A stretch of DNA of 64,000 nt from Escherichia coli. GTDB taxonomy: Bacteria > Pseudomonadota > Gammaproteobacteria > Enterobacterales > Enterobacteriaceae. A program made the position numbers. Below, piece after piece: positions 18,001-21,000 of the stretch. Numbering within the stretch: position 1 is the first letter of the stretch; each line of letters begins with the position of its first letter. The stretch lies in assembly GCF_003018115.1 (NCBI RefSeq), contig NZ_CP027457.1; one strand, 5' to 3'.

Positions 18001-21000
18001 AAATCCGCAACAACAGACGACAACCGAGGAAGCATGAAGAATCAAGCGCATCCGATTATTGTCGTCAAACGACGCAAAGCCAAAAGCCACGGGGCAGCAC
18101 ATGGATCGTGGAAGATTGCTTATGCCGACTTTATGACTGCGATGATGGCCTTTTTTCTGGTGATGTGGCTGATCTCCATCTCCAGCCCAAAAGAGTTGAT
18201 TCAGATTGCGGAGTACTTCCGGACTCCACTGGCGACTGCGGTTACGGGCGGCGATCGCATTTCTAATAGTGAAAGCCCAATTCCCGGCGGTGGCGATGAT
18301 TACACCCAAAGCCAGGGGGAAGTGAATAAGCAGCCGAACATCGAAGAGTTGAAAAAACGCATGGAGCAAAGTCGATTGCGGAAATTGCGTGGCGATCTCG
18401 ACCAATTGATAGAGTCCGATCCGAAACTGCGGGCGTTACGTCCACATCTCAAAATCGATCTGGTCCAGGAAGGTCTACGTATTCAGATCATCGATAGCCA
18501 GAATCGCCCGATGTTTAGAACTGGCAGTGCCGACGTCGAACCCTATATGCGCGACATTCTGCGTGCCATCGCGCCCGTTCTGAATGGTATTCCCAACCGT
18601 ATTAGCCTTTCGGGTCATACCGATGATTTCCCCTACGCCAGTGGTGAGAAAGGTTACAGCAACTGGGAGCTTTCTGCCGATCGGGCCAATGCATCCCGCC
18701 GCGAACTGATGGTCGGAGGGTTGGATAGCGGCAAAGTGTTACGTGTGGTCGGCATGGCGGCAACGATGCGCTTAAGCGATCGCGGACCTGATGATGCCGT
18801 CAACCGTCGCATCAGCCTGCTGGTACTGAACAAACAAGCCGAACAGGCCATTTTGCATGAAAACGCCGAAAGCCAGAATGAGCCAGTAAGCGCCCTGGAA
18901 AAACCTGAGGTTGCACCACAGGTCAGTGTTCCCACAATGCCATCAGCCGAACCGAGGTGACAGCGTGAGCATGGATATAAGCGATTTTTATCAGACATTT
19001 TTTGATGAAGCGGACGAACTGTTGGCTGATATGGAGCAGCATCTGCTGGTTTTGCAGCCGGAAGCGCCAGATGCCGAACAATTGAATGCCATCTTTCGGG
19101 CTGCCCACTCGATCAAAGGAGGGGCAGGAACTTTTGGCTTCAGCGTTTTGCAGGAAACCACGCATCTGATGGAAAACCTGCTCGATGAAGCCAGACGAGG
19201 TGAGATGCAACTCAACACCGACATTATCAATCTGTTTTTGGAAACGAAGGACATCATGCAAGAACAGCTCGACGCTTATAAACAGTCGCAAGAGCCGGAT
19301 GCCGCCAGCTTCGATTATATCTGCCAGGCCTTGCGTCAACTGGCATTAGAAGCGAAAGGCGAAACGCCATCCGCAGTGACCCGATTAAGTGTGGTTGCCA
19401 AAAGTGAACCGCAAGATGAGCAGAGTCGCAGTCAGTTGCCGCGACGAATTATCCTTTCGCGCCTGAAGGCCGGCGAAGTCGACCTGCTGGAAGAAGAGCT
19501 GGGGCATCTGACAACGTTAACTGACGTGGTGAAAGGGGCGGATTCTCTCTCGGCAATATTACCGGGCGATATCGCCGAAGATGACATCACAGCGGTACTC
19601 TGTTTTGTGATTGAAGCCGATCAGATTACCTTTGAAACAGTAGAAGTCTCGCCAAAAATATCCACCCCACCAGTGCTTAAACTGGCAGCCGAACAAGCGC
19701 CAACCGGTCGCGTGGAGCGGGAAAAAACGACGCGCAGCAGTGAATCCACCAGCATCCGTGTAGCGGTAGAAAAGGTTGATCAATTAATTAACCTCGTCGG
19801 CGAGCTGGTTATCACCCAGTCCATGCTTGCCCAGCGTTCCAGCGAACTGGACCCGGTTAATCATGGTGATTTGATTACCAGCATGGGGCAGTTACAACGT
19901 AACGCCCGTGATTTGCAGGAATCAGTGATGTCGATTCGCATGATGCCGATGGAATATGTTTTTAGTCGCTATCCCCGGCTGGTGCGTGATCTGGCGGGAA
20001 AACTCGGCAAGCAGGTAGAACTGACGCTGGTGGGCAGTTCCACTGAACTCGACAAGAGCCTGATAGAACGCATTATCGACCCGCTGACCCACCTGGTACG
20101 CAATAGCCTCGATCACGGTATTGAACTGCCAGAAAAACGGCTCGCCGCAGGTAAAAACAGCGTCGGAAATTTAATTCTGTCTGCCGAACATCAGGGCGGC
20201 AACATTTGCATTGAAGTGACCGACGATGGGGCGGGGCTAAACCGTGAGCGAATTCTGGCAAAAGCGGCCTCGCAAGGTTTGACTGTCAGCGAAAACATGA
20301 GCGACGACGAAGTCGCGATGCTGATATTTGCACCAGGCTTCTCCACGGCAGAGCAGGTCACCGACGTCTCCGGGCGCGGCGTCGGCATGGACGTCGTTAA
20401 ACGTAATATCCAGGAGATGGGCGGTCATGTCGAAATCCAGTCGAAGCAGGGTACTGGCACTACGATCCGCATTTTACTGCCGCTGACGCTGGCCATCCTC
20501 GACGGCATGTCCGTACGCGTTGCGGATGAAGTTTTCATTCTGCCGCTGAATGCTGTTATGGAATCACTGCAACCCCGTGAAGCCGATCTCCATCCACTGG
20601 CCGGCGGCGAGCGGGTGCTGGAAGTGCGGGGTGAATATCTGCCCATCGTCGAACTGTGGAAAGTGTTCAACGTCGCGGGCGCGAAAACCGAAGCTACCCA
20701 GGGAATTGTGGTGATCTTACAAAGTGGCGGTCGCCGCTACGCCTTGCTGGTGGATCAATTAATTGGTCAACATCAGGTTGTAGTTAAAAACCTTGAAAGT
20801 AACTATCGCAAAGTCCCCGGCATTTCTGCTGCGACCATTCTTGGCGACGGCAGCGTGGCACTGATTGTTGATGTCTCCGCCTTGCAGGCGATAAACCGCG
20901 AACAACGTATGGCGAACACCGCCGCCTGAATGAGTAAAAAGGTAACAATATGACCGGTATGACGAATGTAACAAAGCTGGCCAGCGAGCCGTCAGGCCAG

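Follow-up and report, generated by a model that had tools for sequence, protein, structure and literature searches.

CheA-short, which is made from a start codon inside the gene of the chemotaxis kinase CheA, is among the longest-known cases of a "gene within a gene" in bacteria. The tandem starts have been traced to Smith and Parkinson (1980) and to Kofoid and Parkinson (1991), as cited in PMC7696710; the same paper places initiation of CheA-short at codon ATG-98 and describes the short form as nonessential for chemotaxis and as eliminated by the M98L substitution. An M98I variant of CheA likewise shows no CheA-short expression (PMC2644175), and changing the first ribosome-binding site affects total CheA only moderately, owing to the second start (PMC2716512). 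CheA-short lacks the first 97 residues and places CheZ at the cell poles (PMC8563088, PMC7750401), with Leu123 and Leu126 contacting CheZ (PMC7750401). Escherichia coli and Salmonella each make both CheA forms (PMC3676780), and co-expression in other Enterobacteriaceae was described by McNamara and Wolfe (1997), as cited in PMC3676780. It is from this work, on E. coli K-12, that we take three things: that two proteins are made, that the short one is lost upon substitution of codon 98, and that CheZ is recruited. Here we analyzed cheA in a 64,000-nucleotide stretch of E. coli DNA (assembly GCF_003018115.1, contig NZ_CP027457.1; hereafter the window), which, with high confidence on our part, carries the classical tandem in-frame cheA starts in the motA-motB-cheA-cheW operon of a Shiga-toxin-producing strain.

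cheA and its elements described below, together with cheZ and the probable promoter upstream of motA, lie on the plus strand. The coding sequence (CDS) of CheA-long spans positions 18965–20929, stop included, and translation from the GTG at 18965–18967 gives a protein of 654 aa beginning M-S-M-D-I-S-D-F. This GTG, which we call start(L), lies 4 nt past the motB stop. The second start codon, start(S), is the ATG of codon 98 (19256–19258), 291 nt downstream of the first; it opens a CDS of 557 aa (19256–20929, stop included) that shares its frame and its stop with CheA-long. The RefSeq record of a 100%-identical O157:H7 sequence begins cheA exactly at this GTG, and the chains of E. coli CheA in the Protein Data Bank (6S1K and 2LP4) start with MSMDISDF. 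In the K-12 MG1655 record, b1888 carries two CDSs of 1965 nt (654 aa) and 1674 nt (557 aa), with a common stop and with starts 291 nt apart, the same spacing as in the window, the second of them beginning at ATG-98. Many E. coli chromosomes match the 701 bases around the two starts at 100% identity. Compared with K-12, cheA of the window differs at 18 nt and 3 aa (residues 158, 259, and 484), so that 1947 of 1965 nt and 651 of 654 aa are shared. Two of these differences, at nt 66 and 79, fall within the first 330 nt of the gene; the codon-98 region and the 40 nt ahead of the GTG show none. Because the start regions are identical to those of K-12, the K-12 experiments transfer directly to this locus. 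An earlier note on this DNA, made from the sequence alone, had put the beginning of CheA-long (MSMDISDF) at GTG 18965 and that of CheA-short at the in-frame ATG 19256, codon 98. Both assignments are borne out, the first by its exact coordinates and by the RefSeq and K-12 annotation, the second by the second K-12 CDS, the literature, and conservation.

The product has the domains of a complete CheA. Pfam places the Hpt domain (P1) at residues 8–100 (E-value 1.6e-19), followed in order, all above the cut-offs, by the CheY-binding domain (P2, residues 161–223), H-kinase_dim (P3, 261–324), HATPase_c (P4, 372–508), and the CheW-like domain (P5, 514–640). With its motAB-cheAW context, this domain set matches the five-domain P1–P5 CheA histidine kinase. 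The CAC codon at 19106–19108 encodes His48, the phosphorylation site of CheA; it belongs to CheA-long only and is invariant in our alignment (A2).

An in-frame ATG is by itself unremarkable in this gene, since codons 3, 23, 69, 81, and 98 are all ATG. Codon 98 is meaningful because it is identical to that of the experimentally studied K-12 gene and because it is conserved. We scanned the 80 closest relatives (Enterobacteriaceae species), each at least 91% identical in P1 and with P1-coding DNA 78 to 82% identical to the window, as well as more distant Enterobacterales DNA in the form of nine single loci, several of which have a fragmented or frameshifted cheA. ATG-98 was found in all 80 Enterobacteriaceae and in 9/9 of the more distant loci, Serratia, Sodalis, and Proteus included. 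The residue aligned to Met98 is leucine in Bordetella, Achromobacter, Pandoraea, and most Halomonas-type CheA proteins. The occurrence of leucine in beta-proteobacterial and most Halomonas-type CheA argues that methionine is not structurally required at this position, and it fits the functional M98L mutant. The codons around start(S) are also unusually uniform. Within codons 1–133, the deepest trough of synonymous entropy spans codons 86–106 (scan p ~2e-4) and the minimum lies at codons 89–93 (AAC CTG TTT TTG GAA; fixed-window p ~2e-4), both p-values being indicative only, as they ignore phylogenetic relatedness. The stretch CUGUUUUUGGAA upstream of AUG-98 is kept in all 80 genomes. Constraint at the nucleotide level is centered on codon 98.

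The translation initiation region of CheA-short, which lies within the P1 coding sequence at 19229–19270 and inside the trough of synonymous entropy, is AU-rich and predicted to be open. Its GC content of 0.39 corresponds to the 8th percentile of cheA windows. The opening energy predicted for AUG-98, 4.4 kcal/mol, puts the site at the 98th percentile for openness and is below that of every other in-frame AUG tested, among them AUG-81 (7.5 kcal/mol) and AUG-23 (11.1 kcal/mol). We also considered a strong Shine-Dalgarno (SD) sequence at start(S) and rejected it: the only SD-like element upstream of AUG-98, AAGGA at 19247–19251, forms an anti-SD duplex of just −5.4 kcal/mol, and ~10% of all 10-mers in cheA score −4.5 or better. 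In addition, codon 95 is AAG in 8 of the 80 distinct sequences; the others read AAAGAT at this place, leaving most genera with no SD. Judged by these sequence features, what defines the internal site would be its openness and its AU-richness and not an SD, and we infer that it is the AU-rich open region that drives internal initiation at AUG-98.

At start(L), the arrangement is that of a conventional strong ribosome-binding site. The SD sequence GAGGTGA (18954–18960) has the motB stop TGA (18958–18960) as its final three bases, and its predicted anti-SD duplex reaches −10.2 kcal/mol. The aligned spacing from this SD is 7 nt to the GTG at 18965, which is near optimal, and 13 nt to the ATG of codon 3 (18971–18973). 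We compared this region position by position in 85 genomes, the set that also served to count upstream extensions of the gene (see below). GAGGTGA was near-invariant in this set and invariant in the 80 Enterobacteriaceae. In 84 of the 85 genomes, the rare codon AGG was the last sense codon of motB; the codon ahead of it varied, which points to selection for the SD and not for arginine. GTG-1 was present in 80/80 Enterobacteriaceae and in Serratia, Sodalis, and Pantoea-like genomes. The 4-nt spacer from the TGA to the GTG is free to vary and takes 10 forms. GTG-AG does not vary at all, and the base after it is C or T only, a synonymous choice for the serine of codon 2. Taken together, a variable spacer followed by an invariant GTG-AG and a synonymous C/T is the pattern of codons translated from the GTG. 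The annotation, the SD spacing, and this conservation pattern therefore favor GTG-1 over ATG-3 as the probable start of CheA-long.

Several points weigh against the interpretation of the locus as a pair of starts at GTG-1 and ATG-98. The SD of start(S) is weak and unconserved, and if SD strength were the only guide, AUG-81 would seem the better internal start in E. coli. At the other end, the ATG of codon 3 shows the same invariance as GTG-1, and Proteus-like genomes do start there. Finally, the 80 genomes are related, so that the invariance counts and permutation p-values overstate their independence. Even so, nothing we found contradicts the two-start model. The coordinates and reading frame, the identity to the K-12 start regions, and the annotation are shown here, as are the conserved state of the two start codons and the constraint around codon 98. 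We consider the two-start interpretation of cheA in the window to be supported.

The alternative that survives best concerns the long form, which might start at ATG 18971 (codon 3), or at both this ATG and GTG 18965, GTG-AGC being on this reading part of the spacer behind the SD. ATG-3 is invariant across every genome examined. In Proteus mirabilis (locus L087) and in three further Enterobacterales contigs (L088–L090), there is no GTG at the equivalent site, which is occupied by an in-frame stop in the former and by non-start codons in the others; these genes must therefore start at the ATG equivalent to codon 3. In Proteus, an AGGTGA-type SD lies 10 nt upstream of that ATG, a distance equal to that in E. 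coli. CheA of Halomonas, Azotobacter, and Alcanivorax begins with MDI, and enterobacterial CheA is often called from MDIS by gene callers. Since ATG-3 is equally invariant and is used in Proteus-like genomes, sequence alone makes the GTG a probable rather than a certain choice over ATG-3. Against a start at ATG-3 stand the SD spacing of 13 nt compared to the near-optimal 7 nt of the GTG, the invariance of GTG-AG and the restriction of the third base of the serine codon to C or T while the true 4-nt spacer varies, and the agreement of RefSeq, K-12, and the depositors of the protein structures on MSMDISDF. On balance, we regard initiation at ATG-3, alone or alongside GTG-1, as unlikely in E. coli and retain GTG 18965 as start(L). 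We note separately that CheA in Proteus (positions 960–1010 of L087) and in the three Enterobacterales contigs lacks the N-terminal GTG-Ser extension, and that the gap between motB and cheA in P. mirabilis is ~35 nt, compared to 4 nt in E. coli.

A second alternative would add a product rather than replace one. GAGGTGA recurs at 19197–19203 with an anti-SD duplex of −10.2 kcal/mol, equal to that of the SD of start(L), and is followed 1 nt later by an in-frame ATG, codon 81 (GAGGTGAG-ATG). A third, minor E. coli product of 574 aa could thus be initiated from AUG-81 (19205) behind a strong SD, and both AUG-81 and this SD are the same in K-12. The aligned SD spacing of AUG-81, however, is short (~4 nt), and its opening energy exceeds that of AUG-98, as given above. 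Nor is its SD conserved at synonymous sites, where other genera have CGC/CGT, GGT/GGC, and GAR. Moreover, the literature cited here knows two CheA species only and no 574-aa product, and the short one is lost on changing codon 98. We therefore think it improbable that AUG-81 contributes a third CheA form, and we keep AUG-98 as the internal start.

CheA-short could also arise without internal initiation, either as a proteolytic product of CheA-long or by translation of a separate transcript starting inside cheA. Nothing in the sequence favors either origin, which we list as a logical alternative only and rate as very improbable. The substitutions M98I and M98L at codon 98 remove CheA-short while CheA-long stays functional (PMC7696710, PMC2644175), and the constraint at the nucleotide level centered on codon 98 speaks against both origins as well. 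A consensus search of motB and of cheA ahead of codon 98 revealed no promoter of the sigma-70 or sigma-28 type, and more widely no match to either consensus between the site at 16954 upstream of motA and cheA codon 98; an internal promoter for a CheA-short transcript was accordingly rejected. As no promoter consensus was found from motA to codon 98, the parsimonious explanation is that ribosomes initiate internally on the operon mRNA.

The weakest alternative is that CheA begins upstream, at TTG 18911 or GTG 18926, which we dismiss almost entirely: the open reading frame (ORF) is open from TTG 18911 and a GAGG stands just ahead of that TTG, but at a distance of 1 nt only, the extension would overlap the variable C-terminal coding part of motB, these upstream start codons occur in just 2 of the 85 genomes, 55 of the 85 have no in-frame start upstream of the GTG (15 of them with in-frame stops 2–14 codons away), and neither annotation checked (O157:H7 RefSeq and K-12) uses them. 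The upstream extension was thus rejected on conservation grounds. The earlier note was right that the ORF track carries cheA too far upstream, as the mechanical ORF runs to TTG 18911, 18 codons above the GTG, and so over-extends cheA into motB by that length. The "upstream ATG" from which it envisaged a single CheA species does not exist, because a TAA at 18887 closes the frame, and from this stop to start(L) the sole in-frame start codons are TTG 18911 and GTG 18926.

With the starts at GTG-1 and AUG-98, expression of the two forms would proceed as follows. Ribosomes would bind the strong GAGGTGA that overlaps the motB stop and initiate at GTG 18965, giving CheA-long of 654 aa with the phosphorylatable His48. 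Other ribosomes would initiate independently on the same mRNA at AUG 19256, where the message is AU-rich and predicted to be open and the SD is weak, giving CheA-short of 557 aa, which lacks His48 and would have the remnant of P1 exposed. This remnant would then bind CheZ and bring it to the receptor array. The codons of the reported CheZ contacts of CheA-short, Leu123 (TTG at 19331) and Leu126 (CTG at 19340), span 19331–19342. cheZ itself, the gene of the phosphatase partner recruited by CheA-short, lies at 27252–27896, as placed by the ORF listing and by the RefSeq annotation of the colinear O157:H7 region.

We also asked whether the constraint around codon 98 might reflect RNA structure. 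RNAalifold predicts a consensus hairpin of 9 bp whose 5′ arm would be CUGUUUUUG (19232–19240, codons 90–92) and whose 3′ arm would be CAAGAACAG (19259–19267, codons 99–101; CARGAACAG across genomes), with an 18-nt loop that ends in AUG-98 and with 95.7% of cells paired. Both arms are invariant at synonymous sites, and 4 of the 5 third-codon positions in the loop vary; a hairpin would explain invariant arms beside a loop with variable third positions. The predicted free energy of −7.6 to −8.4 kcal/mol (z ~−1.5) was equaled by 18–21 of 200 shuffled sequences, and no compensatory changes were found, 0 of the 9 pairs being changed on both sides. The hairpin thus displays neither covariation nor stability beyond shuffled sequences, by which a structured RNA is judged. 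Its pairing is also lost in Proteus and in L088–L090, all of which keep AUG-98. We can therefore propose only tentatively, and consider it rather doubtful, that the hairpin, with the AUG displayed at the edge of its loop, is under selection in Enterobacteriaceae as a regulatory element and sets the ratio of CheA-short to CheA-long. If formed, such a hairpin could make internal initiation depend on unfolding by ribosomes coming from start(L). The 5′ arm can be broken by synonymous recoding, for example by changing CTGTTTTTG to CTCTTCCTC; a restoring change in the 3′ arm is only partly synonymous, because glutamine and glutamate codons permit only A or G at the third position.

The surroundings of cheA are those of a flagellar and chemotaxis region, with flhDC, motA, motB, cheA, cheW, tar, tap, cheR, cheB, cheY, and cheZ in this order between 16 and 28 kb of the window. 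A probable sigma-28 (FliA) promoter, TAAAGTTT-N11-GCCGATAA with 2 mismatches, lies in the 3′ end of flhC at 16954–16980; it was identified by consensus match only, and is assigned to the motA-motB-cheA-cheW operon on established knowledge. Upstream of tar, at 21540–21566, the same sigma-28 consensus is matched perfectly.

Other observations concern cheA in the window and in its distant relatives. A very strong SD-like sequence, AAAGGAGGGG (−12.1 kcal/mol), occurs at 19115–19124 within the codons of the phosphorylation-site motif SIKGGAG. It arises because E. coli uses GGA GGG, where other genera mostly have GGC GGC, and no in-frame start follows it. In Sodalis praecaptivus (L086) and at three other distant loci (L085, L092, and L093), cheA is split into at least two ORFs, an Hpt fragment and then the rest. 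These split genes are frameshifts, pseudogenes, or assembly errors, and the protein search preferentially gave short fragments of the Hpt type among distant cheA genes. In the metagenome contig L090 (positions 753–2197), a 191-aa CheA fragment covering P1–P2 is followed directly by a short response-regulator ORF and cheZ. The contig lacks the kinase core, cheW, and the receptor genes, pointing to a deletion or to chimeric assembly.

Elsewhere in the window, positions 44500–64000 hold a lambdoid prophage with the Shiga toxin 1a genes stxA1a (58166–59113) and stxB1a (59123–59392), and positions 44000–64000 are 100% identical to E. coli W24, isolated from a calf, and to the O178:H19 strain 2012C-4431. 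Given the stx prophage and these identities, the window comes from a Shiga-toxin-producing strain, and neither from K-12 nor from O157:H7. At its other end, positions 1–3250 carry uvrY, uvrC, and pgsA and then genes for tRNA-Gly, tRNA-Cys, and tRNA-Leu (2947–3248); this part is non-colinear with O157:H7 PV15-279, which has a phage integrase and phage-like genes beyond yecA there.

An intact CheA-short arrangement in a Shiga-toxin-producing strain is to be expected, CheA-short being one of the factors that bring the phosphatase CheZ to the receptor array. The locus bears mainly on annotation. Most genome annotations, that of the O157:H7 RefSeq record included, list the long product only, whereas the K-12 record lists both. 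To what is known, our analysis makes small additions: a constraint signal centered on the internal start, an internal site that appears to be marked by openness and AU-richness and not by an SD, and the absence of GTG-Ser in Proteus-like Enterobacterales.

Set against known systems, the tandem starts of the window are the textbook arrangement of CheA-long and CheA-short, already known and annotated in K-12. E. coli K-12 cheA (b1888) is the same gene with the same start regions and the same 291-nt distance between starts; it differs by three amino acids that lie outside the start regions, and the window comes not from K-12 but from an E. coli strain that produces Shiga toxin 1a. The cheA genes of other Enterobacteriaceae, Salmonella among them, have GTG-1, ATG-3, ATG-98, the GAGGTGA over the motB stop, and CUGUUUUUGGAA in common in all 80 genomes; they mostly carry AAAGAT before AUG-98 where E. 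coli has AAGGAC, hence even less of an SD, and the two forms may be co-expressed in the sampled species as well. CheA of P. mirabilis, one of the Morganellaceae-like Enterobacterales, keeps Met98, the KDIMQ motif, and the position directly after motB, but lacks the GTG-Ser extension, must start at the ATG equivalent to codon 3 of E. coli behind a gap of ~35 nt, and has no hairpin at start(S). Beyond chemotaxis, infB, with IF2 alpha and beta, and Salmonella ssaQ (PMC11005335) likewise produce, from one ORF with an internal start, two products with a common C-terminus. The proteins are unrelated, and CheA-short differs from them in that it loses the phospho-acceptor and gains a CheZ-binding surface.

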